A DNA stretch of 58,342 bases from a phage, in sequence record PZ445426.1. One strand, written 5' to 3'. Below are positions 42,179 through 49,332 of this stretch, piece by piece. Within the stretch, counting starts at the first letter, position 1, and each line of letters opens with the position of its first letter. The position numbers and the translations under genes were made by a program. A model generated the notes under the pieces. It was not told where the DNA came from, searched no databases, and was given only the letters and a program-made list of their open reading frames with translations.

Positions 42179-42772
42179 TTATTTTTTATCTAAATGACGT
42201 GAAGTCATGATCGGATGCGTAGCAGCTTCTTCCTCTGCTGTAACCACATTGGCAGACGTGCCAGTAGACCCGAAGCCGTTAGCACCGCGCTCAGTAGTTT
42301 TGAGCTCGTCTACTTCTACCAGTTGCACGCAAGGCACCTTAATAAGCATAGCTTGCGCAATACGATCACCATGACTAACGGTAAAACTACCATCATGATC
42401 AATAGTAAGCTTAACTTTAACTTCGCCAGTGTAATCGCTATCAATAACGCCCACGCAGTTTGCCAAACGCACGTCATTTTTGAATCCGTGTCCACTACGG
42501 GAATAGACCATAAGCGCATACCCTTTAGGAATATCAAACGCTAGCCCTGTGCGGAATATGTACTCGTTATAGAAATTTATTTGGTCGCAATCGTCTTCGC
42601 TTTTAAGATCCGCGTGCAGGTCAAAACAAGCTGCCCCGGCAGTAGCGAACGCTGGTAGAATTGCGGTGTCTGTTAAGAGCTTCACACCGACCGGAATTGT
42701 GCTTAATGATGCAGCAAGTTTTTCAACATCAATTGCAAAAGAACTTTCTGTGTTATTTAATACGTCAGTCAT
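42179..42772 (-). CDS. dut: dUTP diphosphatase
   Basis: dUTPase motifs: AGAACFDL, YSRSGHG, GVIDSDYTGEV. Confidence 0.8.
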   Translation of the reverse strand: MTDVLNNTESSFAIDVEKLAASLSTIPVGVKLLTDTAILPAFATAGAACFDLHADLKSEDDCDQINFYNEYIFRTGLAFDIPKGYALMVYSRSGHGFKNDVRLANCVGVIDSDYTGEVKVKLTIDHDGSFTVSHGDRIAQAMLIKVPCVQLVEVDELKTTERGANGFGSTGTSANVVTAEEEAATHPIMTSRHLDKK

Positions 42773-42784
42773 AATTTCACCTTA

Positions 42785-43249
42785 TTAAGAATATGTGCCT
42801 GTTTGCACAATGTGATTAATAGCATGTGCTCTGAAGATTTCTCTAAAATCTTCAAGTTCTATTGTGGCACGAATTGGTTCCTTTTTAATATAATGATTGA
42901 ACTCATTAATATCAAAGACGGAAGGGTTCATACATATAACAACTTTCCAACCCGCTCTAGGAATCTTATACATTAAGACCGGGATTTTATTACATTCCTG
43001 TGCAGACTTAACAGTTTGCTTCCACCATGTGTTAACAGCAAGAGTTGCATGGTTTTTAATCTCTACACAATATTGGCAAGTATTATCAATATCCGCACCA
43101 CCTACAGCGGATTGATTTTGTCGCCTTTGTGCAATAGGTTTAGGTGGTAACGGTTTACCAATAAGCTTATGCACTTCAGCATAAATATCGTTGAAAAAAT
43201 CGCAGGCTTCCCTTTCAGCTCTCTGACCTTTTTGACGTATGTTGACCAT
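42785..43249 (-). CDS. putative PD-(D/E)xK resolvase-like nuclease
   Basis: ATG 43249; GADIDNTCQYCVEIK resembles a D...E.K nuclease core; weak call. Confidence 0.3.
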   Translation of the reverse strand: MVNIRQKGQRAEREACDFFNDIYAEVHKLIGKPLPPKPIAQRRQNQSAVGGADIDNTCQYCVEIKNHATLAVNTWWKQTVKSAQECNKIPVLMYKIPRAGWKVVICMNPSVFDINEFNHYIKKEPIRATIELEDFREIFRAHAINHIVQTGTYS

Positions 43250-43727
43250 GATTTGCAAATTCCTTATGTAATTCCAATCTTTTAGCTCTAACCCAAGCTT
43301 TAGCAGCTTGTAAACCTTCAGGTGTAAATTCAAAATATTTTGATACCAGAACACCTCTTACATGTAAGTTTGCATAGTAAACTTGAATACCGTTATGTTT
43401 TGTAATGGTTACACACTTGACACCAGTTTTTGAGTCTTTACGAATAACCATATTATAATTGTTCTGTGAACGATCAGCCAGTCTAAGATTTTCTATTCTG
43501 TTATCGTCTCGAACTCCATTAATATGATCAATTATCATGCCTTCGGGGATATCACCATTGAAGTATTGCCATATTAATCTGTGAGCAAAATAAAATTTCT
43601 TATCAATCTTACCTTGGATATAACCATCCTGACGTCTTGTACCAAATGGTCTTTTATTATATCCGTTTTTATTTCTTTGAAATAATTTGCCATCTATATA
43701 AATAAAACGATCGTTTACATTGATCAT
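43215..43727 (-). CDS. HNH homing endonuclease
   Basis: ATG 43727 with AGGAGG RBS; HRLIWQYFNG...IDHINGVRDDNRIENLRL; preceded by a terminator. Confidence 0.65.
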   Translation of the reverse strand: MINVNDRFIYIDGKLFQRNKNGYNKRPFGTRRQDGYIQGKIDKKFYFAHRLIWQYFNGDIPEGMIIDHINGVRDDNRIENLRLADRSQNNYNMVIRKDSKTGVKCVTITKHNGIQVYYANLHVRGVLVSKYFEFTPEGLQAAKAWVRAKRLELHKEFANHGQHTSKRSES

Positions 43728-43774
43728 ATTTACCTCCTTTATACATATTTTAATATGAAGTAAAATCAATCTCA

Positions 43775-43806
43775 ATAAAAAAGCGCAACGTTTTCACGCT
43801 GCGCTT
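43775..43806 (-). terminator. intrinsic terminator (AAGCGCA-loop-TGCGCTT + UUUUUUAUU)
   Basis: read directly in the intergenic region upstream of the HNH gene. Confidence 0.55.
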
Positions 43807-43907
43807 AGTTTAAATAAGGTACTTGACTATTCAGCTTCCCTTATTTCCGGTAAATTGTACAGCCTCGCCAAAGGCTGGTGACGGTTTGGTACATCTGGCG
43901 CCGTCGC

Positions 43908-44072
43908 GTTAAACATCGTTCACATCGTTCAGTAAGTTGCGGGTTTACCCTGTCCGCTCCAGGAAGCCCAGCGAAAGTAGTTGCTGTAAGGAGGTACAGC
44001 TACCGCTTTCAAGGGCTTGAGTTAAACATCGTTCACTAAGTTAATGTTGTTAAATTGTTAAACCTCGTTAAC
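43908..44072. repeat. three copies of GTTAAAC(A/C)TCGTT(C/A)AC (43908..43923, 44021..44036, degenerate 44057..44072) flanking a nested stem-loop region
   Basis: read directly in a 384-bp non-coding gap. Confidence 0.5.
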
Positions 44073-44111
44073 TGTGGTTATCTTAAAGGATGCAGTCTTG
44101 AATGGCAAGCT

Positions 44112-44426
44112 TCAATTTTGCGCGGTTCCCTTTGCCGCTTTTGGTGCTAAAGTACCATCGTTTAACATCAACTCAAAACCTGTTACTTGATCGGTTGGAA
44201 CAATAGGGTAATTCATAATAGCCATGTGGATACGATGCCCTCCGTCACATTCATCGATGTATTCATTGCCCCAATAGTATAAATGCCCATCTCTTCGGAT
44301 ATCCATTGCCGTCGGGAAATCTACAAGAATTCTTTTGATTTCTTTTCGTCCTTCTTTATGCAGATTAGTTTCAATACGGATAAGCTCCGCATAAATTGCT
44401 TCACAGATAGTATTTACAATTCCCAT
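44112..44426 (-). CDS. hypothetical protein
   Basis: 104-aa ORF; ATG 44426. Confidence 0.4.
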   Translation of the reverse strand: MGIVNTICEAIYAELIRIETNLHKEGRKEIKRILVDFPTAMDIRRDGHLYYWGNEYIDECDGGHRIHMAIMNYPIVPTDQVTGFELMLNDGTLAPKAAKGTAQN

Positions 44427-44478
44427 CACCAGTCCGCCTTTTCTGTTTCGTTAATACATTGTATAAGTTGATCAATAC

Positions 44479-44973: not shown

Positions 44974-45198
44974 ATGGTCATGCTGAATAAAGTATATAGC
45001 ACAATGGGCGCGGATTATAAAGTTGTACGTCACCCGCGTACTGGCAAATTTGAAGCATATATCCGTCCAATGGGTGAAGGTTGGATGTATTACGGCACTT
45101 ATGACGACGCTGAGCAAGCTTATGAAGAAGCGGAAAGTGCGGCGGAAGCATCCGAAATTATGGCAAGGTACGACGTCGATGATTACTATCTCAACTAA
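44974..45198 (+). CDS. hypothetical acidic protein (lone plus-strand gene inside minus-strand block)
   Basis: 74 aa; GGAGGA RBS; followed by a bidirectional terminator. Confidence 0.5.
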   Translation: MVMLNKVYSTMGADYKVVRHPRTGKFEAYIRPMGEGWMYYGTYDDAEQAYEEAESAAEASEIMARYDVDDYYLN

Positions 45199-45202
45199 CA
45201 AT

Positions 45203-45230
45203 AAAGGGCCGAAAGGCCCTTTATTTATTT
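45203..45230. terminator. bidirectional terminator (AAAGGGCC-gaaa-GGCCCTTT + T-rich)
   Basis: read directly between convergent genes 44974..45198 (+) and 45225..47561 (-). Confidence 0.6.
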
Positions 45231-47561
45231 GCTTAAGTCTTTGAAAACACTCTCAATTGACTCGTCTATATACCATCCCAACCCCCTGAAATTACGCTTC
45301 AATGCATCCTCACGCGTAACCGGAACAAGCGCGCCCATATCTACAAGTTGTTTGATAGTGAGGTCTGTTGCAGTACCTGCTCCCATCCTGTGATTCTTGA
45401 ATGCTGCTAGCCCGTAGGTTCTGCGTGTGATAGTTGCCTTCGGAATAATACCGTCAACGCGCAGCTCCTTACGATCACATGCAATTTTACCGCCAAGATA
45501 GTCTTTGCAGACCTGACAGATAGCCTTCACACGCGTTTCATCATCACCGCCAATAGTACCTTTTTCCCATGCGTTGATCATGATGTCCTGCCCATGCGTG
45601 ACAAAATCTACCGCCCATTGCATGTGATTGGGTTGAACGACAGGATTGATCCAGTTTTCCCCCACTGCTAACAGGGAGGCGAGACGCAGAGCTTTAAGGT
45701 GAGCACGGTTCCACGGCTGACGAATTGCTTCGTCTTTTGTTGCGTTAATGTGTTCATCGCACAACAAGTTAAACTCCCGCTCAATCCTTGCAGCTTCCGG
45801 GCTTAACTGGACGGTAACGGTCTGAAACTTTGCCATTGTCACTAACGTGTGGTTAACAAGATGACAGACCATGTCCTTTAATTGTTGGGGCATTGTAATT
45901 TCAGGATTCTCGTTTGCAGGAACACGATCCCCTTCATATTGCACAATGTGGAAACGGGACAAGAAACCGTCTTCCATCATTTCACGTGTTAACGCTTCAA
46001 AGAAGGTGTCTGGTGTTGTTTCGCCCAGCACGCTGAACGCCACCCCTTCCATCGTTTTGGTATTATTAGCCTTATCAGAATATCCGATACCGCCAACAAC
46101 ATCCATCGCACCAGATTTTTGATACACATCTGTGATAGTTTGCTTCAGGGTATAGTTTGCAGTGCCAGGTTGAGCCGTTGCCATACCTTTAATGGTTTTA
46201 CCAAACTCACCGTTAATATTCACAAACGAAGTGTGATCCGCAAAACTTTTACGCAAGGCAGGACCGGAAGCATAGTTAGTCATGTCTACAAATTCATGCA
46301 CTTGCGGTAATTGCTCCCCTACTTGCTTACAGATATAGCTGGGCCCAGCGTGAAGCATTTCTTTGCCCACACCTGATCGGGCAATGAGCACAAAGTAACC
46401 GTTCAACCCTGTGTTGGTGATAGTATTCCATACCTTACCGCACACACCAGACAGAAATGCTAACGATGCGGTGATTGCAATTTCTTTAACCGGACGTTGC
46501 GATGCTTTGTAGATGTACTTCGCAAGCTCCCCAGCAAGCCCCGGCGGCCACTCAATAGCGGTTGCATCAATAGACGTACTTTCTGCGACCACTATTTCAC
46601 CAGAAGGGCTAACTGTGGTTACAGGCATCTCTGTTACTTGCTGCATTGTGCTGTGTGCTGCTTGCATACGGGCAGCGTAATCCCGCGCCAGCGCCGCTAC
46701 GTTTTCCTGGGCAATGCGCTCACGCTCCATGCGACCTCGACACATACGCAAGCAACGGTCAATATGAACATTGTTCTTATTAGCCTTCTCACGTTTGCCC
46801 AGTGCACTGTAACGAAATAAACGGCGACATTGCTCATTACTTTCCGTGTAGAATGCATACATAGAAATAAGGGCAAGGTCTGCTTCAGACTGGGAGGGGA
46901 ATCCCATTTCAACCCATTCACCATTAAATAACCGCGCATACTTATCGCCGTTATCTGCTTCAAGTGCACGCTGGTGAATAGTTGCATCATCTTCTACCGG
47001 ATCTTTTTCTACCAGTTCAATTTCATATGTCTTGCGCTGAAGATCAATTTCATTCACAAGCATAGTAAGGTAATGATCACGTTCTGCAACTGGTTTGTTG
47101 TAGACGGGATTACCCGTGCAGATAATAAAACGCTCCTGACTATAAACCTCGACACCATCACGTCGACGACCTTTACCGATGTTACCTCTTAACCACAGGT
47201 GAACACCCAAGCCTGAGCGACTCACTTCGGTGTAAGTATCGAACGCAGTCATGATCTGTTCGAAGCGGCGCAACTGCTCCGGCGTCGTGTGCTTCTTGGG
47301 ATCAGGTTCATTGGTTGCATTCTTCACATCCAGGTCGATGCAGGTGAACGGGTCTTGTGCAGTAAGCACGAAGCCAATATAAGGTTTATTGAAATGAGCG
47401 GCGCAACCTTTGGCAGCTTCAAACGTCATAAGGATATCCGGATCGGTAACGTCCGCCGCCATCAAACGTCCGATATCGTTGTCCCATACAAGCGGCTTTT
47501 TATCCGCATCGGCCACCGCCCATTGTGGGAAAGCTTTAATTTCAGCGGGAAACAGTTCCAT
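45225..47561 (-). CDS. primase-polymerase (Prim-Pol, AEP superfamily) with C-terminal extension
   Basis: Prim-Pol motifs: CIDLDV (DxD), SRSGLGVHLWL (SGxGxH), ERFIICTGN; 778 aa. Confidence 0.65.
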   Translation of the reverse strand: MELFPAEIKAFPQWAVADADKKPLVWDNDIGRLMAADVTDPDILMTFEAAKGCAAHFNKPYIGFVLTAQDPFTCIDLDVKNATNEPDPKKHTTPEQLRRFEQIMTAFDTYTEVSRSGLGVHLWLRGNIGKGRRRDGVEVYSQERFIICTGNPVYNKPVAERDHYLTMLVNEIDLQRKTYEIELVEKDPVEDDATIHQRALEADNGDKYARLFNGEWVEMGFPSQSEADLALISMYAFYTESNEQCRRLFRYSALGKREKANKNNVHIDRCLRMCRGRMERERIAQENVAALARDYAARMQAAHSTMQQVTEMPVTTVSPSGEIVVAESTSIDATAIEWPPGLAGELAKYIYKASQRPVKEIAITASLAFLSGVCGKVWNTITNTGLNGYFVLIARSGVGKEMLHAGPSYICKQVGEQLPQVHEFVDMTNYASGPALRKSFADHTSFVNINGEFGKTIKGMATAQPGTANYTLKQTITDVYQKSGAMDVVGGIGYSDKANNTKTMEGVAFSVLGETTPDTFFEALTREMMEDGFLSRFHIVQYEGDRVPANENPEITMPQQLKDMVCHLVNHTLVTMAKFQTVTVQLSPEAARIEREFNLLCDEHINATKDEAIRQPWNRAHLKALRLASLLAVGENWINPVVQPNHMQWAVDFVTHGQDIMINAWEKGTIGGDDETRVKAICQVCKDYLGGKIACDRKELRVDGIIPKATITRRTYGLAAFKNHRMGAGTATDLTIKQLVDMGALVPVTREDALKRNFRGLGWYIDESIESVFKDLSK

Positions 47562-48321: not shown

Positions 48322-49155
48322 ATCTACCTCCTAACAGCACTATACACAATACATAGTAAGACAGCCACAATTATTCCACACGAAGTTATGATGTGAGCGG
48401 ATTGTTAATATATAACCACATGTGATGGAAAGTTTTGGGTAGGAATAGTTGGTGCTCCACAGTTTGCACAATGTGACGGAAAGTTTTGTGAGTTTTGCGA
48501 AGTTTTGCGAAGTTTTGTGGTGCCACTGTTGCTAAAAACTTTAATAAAAACAATAAGTTGGTGCAGTAAGTTTTTGCGTTTTGGGGTAAAACGCATTTTT
48601 TACCCTAACACCCAAATCCCGACTGTTAGTAAAAAACGTATATAAATCAATAGGATAGATACTAAATGAATAGTGGATGGAATGGGTAGAAATCCAAATG
48701 ATGGAAGTGGAATAATTTATTCCTACTTGATAGAATAATGGAATCGGTACTCCAGAGCGCAAAAACCTAAAACTTTCAGTCAACAGACTAAAAACGGATA
48801 GAAACTAAAAGTTAATAAGTAATACCATAAATATATATAAAATAAGGATTTATTAGTAATGTATATAGTACCTATTGGTATTATTTGAATGTTTTTGGGT
48901 CACTGTTAAAAAGTCCCAAAACTCACAAAAAGTGAAAGAATACAATTCGTGACAGGATTGTTAATGAAATATGGTGTATGGATATACAGTATTATTCCAG
49001 ATTCCGGAATAATTGGAATAATGGAATAAATTATTGAACTATTGTAATCGGAAGGTATATCAAGCTATAATGCGCTTAATCGCGGGATATTGGAGGAGGA
49101 CTTTATTGCGCGGTTAACCGGACCAGTAGGAGGGCTGGCCCGGAGAAGTTAGAAT
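48322..49155. promoter_or_regulatory. 830-bp AT-rich non-coding region with iteron-like and inverted repeats (candidate replication origin / early control region)
   Basis: no credible ORF; multiple short direct and inverted repeats read directly. Confidence 0.45.
48427..48520. repeat. array of five (G)AAGTTTTG(C/T)G direct repeats
   Basis: GGAAAGTTTTGGG, GGAAAGTTTTGTG, AGTTTTGCG, AAGTTTTGCG, AAGTTTTGTGG read directly. Confidence 0.6.
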
Positions 49156-49332
49156 TTATTTGCGGACGAATACAGAGCCGACAAATAATGTTGACTGAGT
49201 AGCAGCTTGCTCGATTAATTCGCCAACAAGCTGGGACTGCGTCAGAGGTTTAAGGCCTTCTTTGGCGCGTGCTTCATTTACACGGCGCTGAAGGTCTTTT
49301 AGGTATTGAGTTGCGAAGCTGTCTAATTGCAT
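49156..49332 (-). CDS. small hypothetical protein (58 aa, below ORF-track cutoff)
   Basis: ATG with perfect AGGAG RBS; hand translation MQLDSFATQYLKDLQRRVNEARAKEGLKPLTQSQLVGELIEQAATQSTLFVGSVFVRK. Confidence 0.4.
   Translation of the reverse strand: MQLDSFATQYLKDLQRRVNEARAKEGLKPLTQSQLVGELIEQAATQSTLFVGSVFVRK

Follow-up and report, generated by a model that had tools for sequence, protein, structure and literature searches.

Introduction

Phages and prophages encode small RNAs that have their own promoter and a rho-independent terminator, among them lambda OOP, P22 Sar and DicF. In the antisense immunity RNAs c4 of P1/P7 and CI of P4, RNA loops are complementary to flanking repeats, and the P4 case is tied to a primase-helicase operon; short repeats also serve as the iterons of replication origins such as P4 ori/crr and SaPI ori. 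Here we analyse an element in PZ445426.1, the 58,342-nt sequence of a Seuratvirus (Queuovirinae) whose close kin include SA126VB, CAjan, Seurat and several BASEL phages; this whole stretch is called the window below. The element lies inside a gap of 384 bp between a gene for a protein of 105 amino acids and a free-standing HNH endonuclease gene. On balance we think that the locus is probably a free-standing gene for a modular, structured noncoding RNA of about 300 nt, encoded by the minus strand and specific to Seuratvirus, a reading that draws on comparison of related sequences.

The element is like OOP, Sar and DicF in being an intergenic unit free of open reading frames (ORFs), with a sigma70-type promoter, a terminator, stable hairpins and a loop that is exposed and could base-pair with ribosome-binding sites. 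It differs from them in that it has no sequence or Rfam similarity, is about 300 nt long and modular, includes a pseudoknot and repeated linkers, occurs in virulent phages and yielded no antisense target. With c4 and CI it shares a structured RNA placed between short direct repeats of one transcript and a sequence complementary to a ribosome-binding site; unlike them it has no complementarity between loop and repeats and no match to the Rfam C4 model, and the phage is virulent. The element is most likely new, a phage-encoded structured RNA without a matching Rfam family. It is a concrete candidate, accessible to experiment, for a noncoding RNA of a virulent phage, and few RNAs of this class have been characterised. 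Several well-used model phages of E. coli are Seuratviruses (CAjan, Seurat and the BASEL phages KurtStettler, WildeMaa, GottfriedDienst and SeppeHuegi). Existing annotations leave the 400-bp gap empty or give it ORFs that are probably spurious, and our result would correct them. Our literature searches found no report of this RNA and no RNA-seq study of a Seuratvirus.

Transcription signals and coding potential

A preliminary description of this DNA, made from its letters, had noted a repeated 16-bp motif flanking a nested stem-loop, followed by a terminator, upstream of the HNH gene, and had offered three readings: a small structured RNA, a regulator-binding array or a scar of HNH insertion. 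All of the functional signals in the element and its flanking genes are on the minus strand, where the order is promoter, repeat, stem-loops, repeat, further hairpins, terminator, promoter and HNH gene. The features of the locus are as follows.

44080..44108, minus: sigma70-like promoter from a promoter scan (-35 TTGCCA at 44108-44103, 17-nt spacer, -10 TAAGAT at 44085-44080)
43774..44075, minus: predicted noncoding RNA, about 300 nt long, that would begin at the predicted start and end in the terminator U-tract
44021..44072, minus: array 1, the 5' leader, with six xTxAAC hexamers and 29% G+C; it holds the degenerate copy and one exact copy of the 16-mer
43964..44018, minus: hairpin P1, 55 nt and 21 bp with apical loop CCUCCU, present in the minimum free energy (MFE), centroid and RNAalifold structures
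43987..43995, minus: tip of P1, ACCUCCUUA, invariant in 18/18 distinct sequences over a stem that covaries
43939..43963, minus: H-type pseudoknot directly after P1, CCUG-GA-GCGG-A-CAGG-GUAAAC-CCGC-AAC
43908..43938, minus: array 2, the linker AACUUAC-UGAACGAUG-UGAACGAUG-UUUAAC, which holds the second exact 16-mer (43908-43923)
43880..43905, minus: hairpin P4a, GACGG / CCGUC closing a 16-nt loop, CGCCAGAUGUACCAAA; it falls in the element's longest block without variation (27 nt)
43860..43877, minus: hairpin P4b, CAGCCUU-UGGC-GAGGCUG, present in the MFE, centroid and RNAalifold structures
43812..43846, minus: hairpin P5, AAAUAAGG..CCUUAUUU, with AGUCAAGUA in its loop; part of the 3' allele linked to the HNH gene
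43774..43806, minus: intrinsic terminator, AAGCGCAGCGU-GAAA-ACGUUGCGCUU then UUUUUUAUU
43775-43747, minus: second sigma70-like promoter, TTGAGA-N17-TAAAAT, past the terminator and serving the downstream gene

The predicted promoter sits just past the stop codon of the 105-amino-acid gene, with a predicted start at about 44075-44073. It is kept in all relatives, with TTGACG as the -35 element in ECP2304 and a consensus-like TTGACA-N17-TAATAT in the divergent Salmonella phage STP-SP5. The strong terminator was borne out: on the minus strand 43806-43781 reads as an 11-bp stem with a GAAA loop, then a run of T6. The reported succession, with the terminator following the stem-loop element and upstream of the HNH gene, holds in the minus direction and fails in the plus direction. 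Relatives that lack the HNH gene have an unrelated terminator at the same position (GCCCAGG-loop-CCUGGGC then U6), and in both alleles a second promoter follows it (TTGAGA or TTGCGA, N17, TAAAAT). An ORF-free, conserved and structured stretch is in this way enclosed by its own predicted promoter and terminator, the general mark of a noncoding RNA gene.

There is no conserved ORF on either strand of the element. Two ORFs were considered and set aside, a plus-strand frame of 53 amino acids (43878-44039) listed as a hypothetical protein in BASEL and KS phages (KurtStettler bas22_0061, KS_A3) and a minus-strand frame of 29 amino acids (43827-43916) taken from the Dru_SM1 annotation. Both frames are shifted in STP-SP5 by indels (2 nt and 1 nt) that leave unrelated translations, with identical DNA between the indels; the ORFs annotated over the element are probably spurious. 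A scan for transfer RNAs and transfer-messenger RNA found none. Searched against Rfam, the whole window gave 0 matches at the gathering threshold and, at E <= 10, only terminator look-alikes far below that threshold. The 337-nt element had no match at E <= 1 among 5,426 complete E. coli genomes in a distant-mode BLAST search that included their CRISPR arrays.

Compensatory changes and the sense of the predicted transcript

The nested inverted repeat of the preliminary description (AAGCCC..GGGCTT around AGCG..CGCT and GCTGTA-loop-TACAGC) is the dominant hairpin, P1, in both the MFE and the centroid folds, and the minus strand folds with -87.4 kcal/mol (z = -2.8). Covariation was assessed on an alignment of 18 distinct sequences. 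RNAalifold predicted P1, P4b and P5 and found compensatory changes at 11 pairs. A separate pair count was made on a structure that we specified (P1, stems S1 and S2 of the pseudoknot, P4a, P4b and P5): 96.6% of its cells form standard pairs, and ten pairs are changed on both sides, compared with 3.0 +/- 1.0 in column shuffles, the observed value being reached in 0/500. When the partners were slid by 1-3 columns as a control, only 1-3 pairs were changed on both sides. The folding and covariation check suggested beforehand returned stable folds and compensatory changes in three structures, namely P1, P5 and the H-type pseudoknot.

P1 keeps its pairing (99.2% of cells paired) with 6/21 pairs changed on both sides, in STP-SP5 and one IMG/VR phage. 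Its invariant tip, ACCUCCUUA, corresponds to what we take to be the last 9 nt at the 3' end of E. coli 16S rRNA, where the anti-Shine-Dalgarno sequence lies; the loop has a predicted unpaired probability of 1.00 and is complementary at 9/9 positions to the ribosome-binding site of the HNH gene (43731-43739). P5 differs between alleles, the HNH-free form being GGAUAG..CUAUCC around the shared loop motif AGUCAAAGUA, and has three pairs changed on both sides, with a double change from A-U to G-C in SA80RD and OddieOddie. P4a is invariant in 18/18 distinct sequences, STP-SP5 included. RNAalifold also proposed that the 5' leader pairs over a long range with the tail of the pseudoknot; this pairing is broken three times in STP-SP5 and was replaced by the compensated S2.

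In the strand test 96.6% of cells paired in the minus sense and 91.3% in the plus sense; G-U cells numbered 62 and A-C cells 15. Read in the minus sense, one-sided changes yield G-U at eight positions that vary and A-C at no more than two or three; in P4b two independent one-sided changes are G-U on the minus sense and A-C on the plus. These one-sided changes favour the minus sense. Among the earlier readings, that of a small structured RNA is supported by the promoter and terminator, the lack of a conserved ORF, the compensated helices and the strand-biased wobble pairs.

An H-type pseudoknot in a predicted modular RNA

In the pseudoknot that follows P1, S1 pairs CCUG (43963-43960) with CAGG (43952-43949) and S2 pairs GCGG (43957-43954) with CCGC (43942-43939); the loops are L1 GA, L2 A and L3 GUAAAC, which is AUAAAC in many relatives, and an AAC tail follows. 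In STP-SP5 S2 is GUGG:CCAC. A further version comes from ERZ1026901 NODE-154 (L047), a 61-kb metagenomic Seuratvirus contig in which an extra module of about 100 nt lies in the second repeat (1130-1250). It consists of a new long hairpin, then CCAG-GA-CUGU-A-CUGG-AUAAAC-ACAG-AAC, then its own copy of the linker. In this paralogous pseudoknot both stems are re-paired (S1 CCAG:CUGG, S2 CUGU:ACAG) around unchanged loops, so that three versions of S2 (GCGG:CCGC, GUGG:CCAC, CUGU:ACAG) and two of S1 accompany constant loops. The fully re-paired stems of this copy, with their unchanged loops, are strong evidence for an H-type pseudoknot. The whole L047 RNA, predicted at 408 nt, folds with z = -4.1.

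A generic pseudoknot descriptor recovered every Seuratvirus copy and 1 unrelated match in 1.3 Mb of sequence. A sequence pattern for the pseudoknot, run on IMG/VR and 185,579 genomes, gave 4 chance matches, all without complementarity in S1 and S2. The L047 insert had no match among GenBank phages, and permissive Rfam scans of the pseudoknot alone (56 nt) and of the insert returned nothing relevant.

Conservation of the element and the HNH allele

The genes around the element, with their order, are as follows.

45225-47561, minus: primase-polymerase (prim-pol)/helicase, an NrS-1-type prim-pol domain and HBD with DUF3987, 1.1 kb upstream of the element
44112-44429, minus: gene for the 105-amino-acid protein, directly upstream of the element
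43727-43215, minus: free-standing HNH_3 endonuclease (HNH_3, E = 1.5e-22)
after the HNH gene, minus: PDDEXK resolvase ('RusA-like')
after the resolvase, minus: dUTPase

The segment 43855-44111 is 97-99.6% identical in 33 GenBank Seuratviruses, 3 IMG/VR contigs and 8 metagenome contigs, compared with only 88-95% for the surrounding 6.6 kb in relatives. The 105-amino-acid protein upstream has 58% identity in slur01 and 45% in STP-SP5, and the resolvase downstream is 61% identical to that of Seurat. Between the window and STP-SP5 the element has 76% identity and the three nearest genes measured (105-amino-acid protein, resolvase, dUTPase) have 21-57%. By these comparisons the element is a conservation island between much more variable genes, and it is kept in all Seurat-like E. 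coli phages. Homologues were sought with three DNA patterns in IMG/VR, an 18-mer in metagenomes (46 loci, 8 real), the pseudoknot descriptor and a neighbouring protein in IMG/VR and GenBank phages; for divergent homologues these searches gave only near-identical Seuratviruses and STP-SP5.

The same comparison bears on the third of the earlier readings, that the structure is the insertion footprint or target-site scar of an HNH homing endonuclease. The element does lie directly upstream of a free-standing HNH gene, and there is a sequence discontinuity at 43855. Only four GenBank relatives and one metagenome contig have the HNH gene here, however, and alignment to the HNH-free relatives found the repeats and nested stem-loop in every one: about 29/33 close relatives without the gene keep them at 97-99.6%. 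In genomes with the HNH gene the sequence switches at 43855 to a divergent homologous allele that covers the final hairpin with the terminator, the promoter after it and the resolvase, and all three copies of the repeat and the nested stem-loop are outside this HNH-linked segment. It stands in place of homologous sequence (P5, terminator, promoter, resolvase) and duplicates nothing. Because the repeats and stems lie outside it and are kept in HNH-free relatives, we regard the scar reading as refuted and its probability as close to negligible. The HNH gene would then be a later neighbour or passenger that came with the divergent 3' allele, not the cause of the structure.

The mosaic segment of about 1.4 kb (~42470-43855) holds the HNH gene and has divergent alleles in place of the RNA 3' end, the promoter and the resolvase; within it the HNH stop overlaps the resolvase start by about 35 nt. 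It is consistent with homing and co-conversion or with exchange of a module with another lineage.

Repeats, linkers and hexamer arrays

The 16-mer GTTAAACATCGTTCAC occurs exactly at 43908-43923 and 44021-44036, as first described, and a further copy at 44057-44072 agrees at 14/16 positions. With as many as 3 mismatches permitted there are 4 matches in the window against 0.57 expected, a count reached in 0/100 shuffles, and 3/4 genomic copies of the octamer GAACGATG (58-kb window) are within this locus. The exact identity of the two copies is a feature of this phage; in the other aligned Seurat-group sequences it is 15/16. Base 44026, in copy A, is T here and C in every other Seurat-group sequence aligned, and STP-SP5 keeps the T but has other differences in the 16-mer.

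A simple 16-bp motif is present; the repeat itself is longer, more degenerate and embedded in hexamer arrays. On the minus strand the full repeat is AACUUAsUGAACGAUG(UGAACGAUG)yUUAAC, which corresponds to an A/U-rich linker consensus AACUUAsUGAACGAUGyUUAAC; the linker before the stem-loop reads AACUUAG-UGAACGAUG-UUUAAC. Array 1 has the hexamers GTTAAC, TTTAAC, TTTAAC, ATTAAC, GTGAAC and TTTAAC at start-to-start spacings of 10, 8, 9, 9 and 10 nt; no other xTxAAC cluster in the genome is as dense (6 hexamers in 60 nt, where 0.30 are expected). Array 2 has three hexamers at 43932-43908, in 31 nt, compared with six in 52 nt in array 1, at the same spacing of 8-10 nt; Tandem Repeats Finder reports period 9 and 2.1 copies for it. 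The only tandem repeats at the locus are a 9-nt unit present 2.1 times and an 8-nt unit present twice.

In Dru_SM1 array 2 has one additional 9-nt UGAACGAUG unit, and in STP-SP5 8 nt, roughly one 9-nt unit, are missing from array 1. The gain and the loss of a unit, together with the extra L047 module that has its own linker, indicate that the repeat first noticed belongs to a linker found ahead of each structured module. Pairing of the 22-nt repeat with the modules was no better than that of shuffled repeats in RNAduplex (-10.7 kcal/mol for the first module, A, against -9.2 +/- 2.4, and -9.1 kcal/mol for the second, B, against -9.7 +/- 2.1). The HNH mRNA has at 43465-43474 (minus) the sequence AUCGUUCACA, a 10-nt complement of the repeat core UGUGAACGAU; a match of this length is expected by chance.

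The same slot in other genera

The slot upstream of the resolvase is also occupied elsewhere. In the Nonagvirus JenP1 (L069 1836-1978) it holds both GTAAAC and GTTAAC hexamers, along with about 110 nt of structured sequence and an intrinsic terminator (z = -3.0). In the Providencia phage PSTCR4 (L070 1440-1830) there are eight GTNAAC-type hexamers, mostly 9 nt apart, among them the 12-mer AACTTAGTGAAC in common with the window, and after them a strongly structured stretch of about 250 nt that ends in an intrinsic terminator (z = -5.4). A mini-ORF of 9 codons with a good Shine-Dalgarno sequence (AGGAGcaaATG...TAA) lies inside a long hairpin of the PSTCR4 region. The structured parts of JenP1 and PSTCR4 have no detectable homology to the Seuratvirus RNA and lack the pseudoknot, and Rfam scans of the two loci found nothing; they may be unrelated noncoding RNAs or leaders in the same genomic slot. 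Nipunavirus, Salvavirus and a Vibrio phage, which are more distant relatives, have no gap at this position. The earlier suggestion of a regulator-binding array gains from the phasing of the hexamers and their presence at the same slot in two genera, and we keep it as a rival reading of the repeats.

A replication origin?

The arrays might alternatively mark a replication origin or part of one, in which the hexamers would be iterons or priming sites for the prim-pol/helicase, P1 would act as a DNA stem-loop for assembly and transcription would only activate or regulate the process. We hold this to be possible, though unlikely. The replication protein of the phage combines an NrS-1-type prim-pol domain and HBD with DUF3987. 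The locus offers two phased arrays of short direct repeats, the top cluster in the genome, whose unit number varies between phages; hexamers and AACTTAGTGAAC stand at the same slot in PSTCR4, where the C-terminal half of the primase is 48% identical to that of the window, and both GTAAAC and GTTAAC hexamers are found in JenP1 too. Used as a query, the C-terminal 159 amino acids of the primase returned one protein only. The P4 iteron, presumably TGTTCACC, has a complement that contains GTGAAC.

There is precedent for such an arrangement. In pRN1, which has a prim-pol with an SF3 helicase, replication requires a stem-loop of about 100 nt located 3' of the rep gene; its structure is conserved despite low sequence identity, and the same study noted a similar stem-loop in phage BIP-1 (PMC4234260). 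As in the stem-loop origin of pRN1 ORF904, proposed also for BIP-1 (PMC4234260), the window has a prim-pol of the archaeo-eukaryotic primase type with a helicase-associated domain and a stem-loop of conserved structure 3' of its gene. Primer synthesis by the NrS-1 prim-pol starts at 5'-GTGA-3' and 5'-TTTGGTTA-3' (PMC8718748). The phased repeats here include GTG(A), a priming motif of these related enzymes (PMC8718748): GTGAAC contains GTGA, and the plus strand of the invariant core reads GGTTTGGTAC. If the element were an origin it would mark that of an NrS-1/pRN1-type prim-pol replicase in an E. coli phage. Positions 43884-43894 of the invariant 27-nt core read GGTTTGGTACA on the plus strand, and the TTTGGT within it equals the first six bases of TTTGGTTA (PMC8718748); a six-base match of this kind is expected by chance about once per seven such regions.

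Several features count against an origin at this place. GTGA is found in only 2/9 hexamers, and the segment between the arrays has 56% G+C and is no AT-rich unwinding element. There is no inflection of GC skew here; the cumulative skew turns near 22 kb and 48 kb, with its minimum at about 48 kb, and a noncoding AT-rich region of about 850 bp at that minimum looks more like a classical origin. A compensated pseudoknot, strand-biased wobbles, a covarying P5 and two alternative terminators would be superfluous for an origin that works as duplex DNA. The element also differs from the prim-pol origins in lying 1.1 kb away from the primase gene, in having its own promoter, terminator, pseudoknot and strand-biased wobbles and in lacking an AT-rich core or a skew inflection.

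The region at the skew minimum (48322-49160, about 850 bp) is noncoding and AT-rich and coincides with a switch in gene orientation. It contains five copies of AAGTTTTGNG (48470-48520), several of GGAATAAT (48700-48740, 49000-49030) and other short tandem repeats, and STP-SP5 has a matching gap of 826 bp. It looks like a classical origin or an early control region.

A cis-acting region?

The element could also act in cis, as a long 3' untranslated region of the upstream operon or as a leader or attenuator for the resolvase and dUTPase genes, with the arrays as operators and the terminator as a regulated stop. We think this rather unlikely. The flanking genes are all on the minus strand, and there is no terminator between the upstream gene and the element, so the element would also be transcribed by read-through. 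Array 1 begins at about +1 of the promoter, the JenP1 terminator lies directly before the resolvase ribosome-binding site in the manner of an attenuator, and small candidate DNA-binding genes are found nearby, one of which has a weak match to the AP2 domain. On the other hand, a separate sigma70-like promoter lies past the terminator in both Seuratvirus alleles, which would make the downstream genes independent of read-through. No conserved antiterminator pairing was found, and the candidates examined by eye are not kept in STP-SP5; one of these, in which the 3' arm of P1 would pair with the 5' arm of the terminator, fits both alleles of the E. coli phages and is absent from STP-SP5. The invariant loops (ACCUCCUUA, RUAAAC and the 16-nt loop of P4a) on varying stems fit a folded RNA that makes specific contacts.

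A proposed mechanism for the noncoding RNA

Returning to a free-standing noncoding RNA, the favoured reading, we propose that host RNA polymerase would make it early in infection. Module A consists of P1, whose loop copies the anti-Shine-Dalgarno end of 16S rRNA, and then the H-type pseudoknot; module B consists of P4a and P4b, then P5 and the terminator. Each module is preceded by an A/U-rich linker, and the linkers may be single-stranded platforms for a protein or for processing of the RNase E type that separate the modules. The loop of P1 might pair with the Shine-Dalgarno regions of target mRNAs or serve a protein as a mimic of the 16S 3' end. The pseudoknot, whose loops are constant and whose stems vary, could bind a factor, or else cap or protect the 3' end of module A.

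Several observations weigh against this proposal. The promoter, terminator and transcript are predictions from sequence; the promoter matches the consensus at 9/12 positions, and such matches are no commoner here than in shuffled sequence. The plus strand folds as well as the minus (-87.9 and -87.4 kcal/mol), and with values so close fold energy alone does not separate the strands. Most of the covariation comes from STP-SP5, one allele swap and one paralogous module, which are few independent events; P4a, S1 (within the 18-sequence alignment) and most of the linkers are invariant and give no covariation test of their pairing. We found no convincing antisense target: the longest matches in the phage genome are 12 nt, at about the number expected by chance, and any strong ribosome-binding site would be a partner for an anti-Shine-Dalgarno loop. 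Only the hexamer arrays are shared with other genera, and a role as DNA-binding sites explains them equally well; the pRN1 and BIP-1 stem-loops (PMC4234260) are a precedent for structure of this kind in an origin.

The linker, hairpin and pseudoknot may also be viewed together as a duplicable RNA cassette of an aptamer-like kind, either a sensor of a 7-deazaguanine precursor or a decoy that joins a mimic of the 16S 3' end (the P1 loop) to one of the type I-E CRISPR RNA handle (hairpin plus AUAAACC) and titrates a host defence or translation factor. This is quite unlikely; if true, the cassette would be a new class of phage RNA effector. With constant loops (GA / A / RUAAAC-AAC) on freely changing stems, the pseudoknot would be well suited to bind a small molecule or a host protein as an aptamer. 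Queuovirinae take their name from DNA modification with 7-deazaguanine, a queuosine precursor. This modification is reported from members of Seuratvirus such as CAjan (PMC6884629).

The pseudoknot is like the preQ1-I riboswitch in being a compact H-type fold of about 30 nt with an A-rich L3 (RUAAAC), and both S1 and S2 are compensated. It differs in that it has no match to the preQ1 model even in the permissive 56-nt scan and does not lie before the ribosome-binding site of a gene. The cytosine that presumably pairs with the ligand in preQ1-I is absent, L2 being a single A. A likeness to the CRISPR I-E repeat lies in a hairpin followed by (A/G)UAAACC. Compared by eye, GGAUAAACC of the CAjan type equals 9 nt across the Cas6e cleavage site and 5' handle of what we take to be the E. 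coli I-E repeat. Compared with a CRISPR repeat mimic (a solitary repeat unit or RNA anti-CRISPR), the element shares these 9 nt, 8 in the window, and has another stem and loop, so the likeness is a lead only. It differs from ToxI-like type III antitoxins in having no tandem repeats of about 34-40 nt and no adjacent toxin-like match; the neighbouring proteins have none in Pfam or PHROG.

Neighbouring genes

Three small genes separate the element from the primase gene. Among the genes between primase and element, that for a protein of 74 amino acids (44974-45198, plus) is the sole plus-strand gene amid the minus-strand run. Its product has a weak match to the AP2 domain (E = 0.006, below the Pfam cut-off) and is a candidate small DNA-binding protein, and a bidirectional terminator (45200-45225) flanks the gene.

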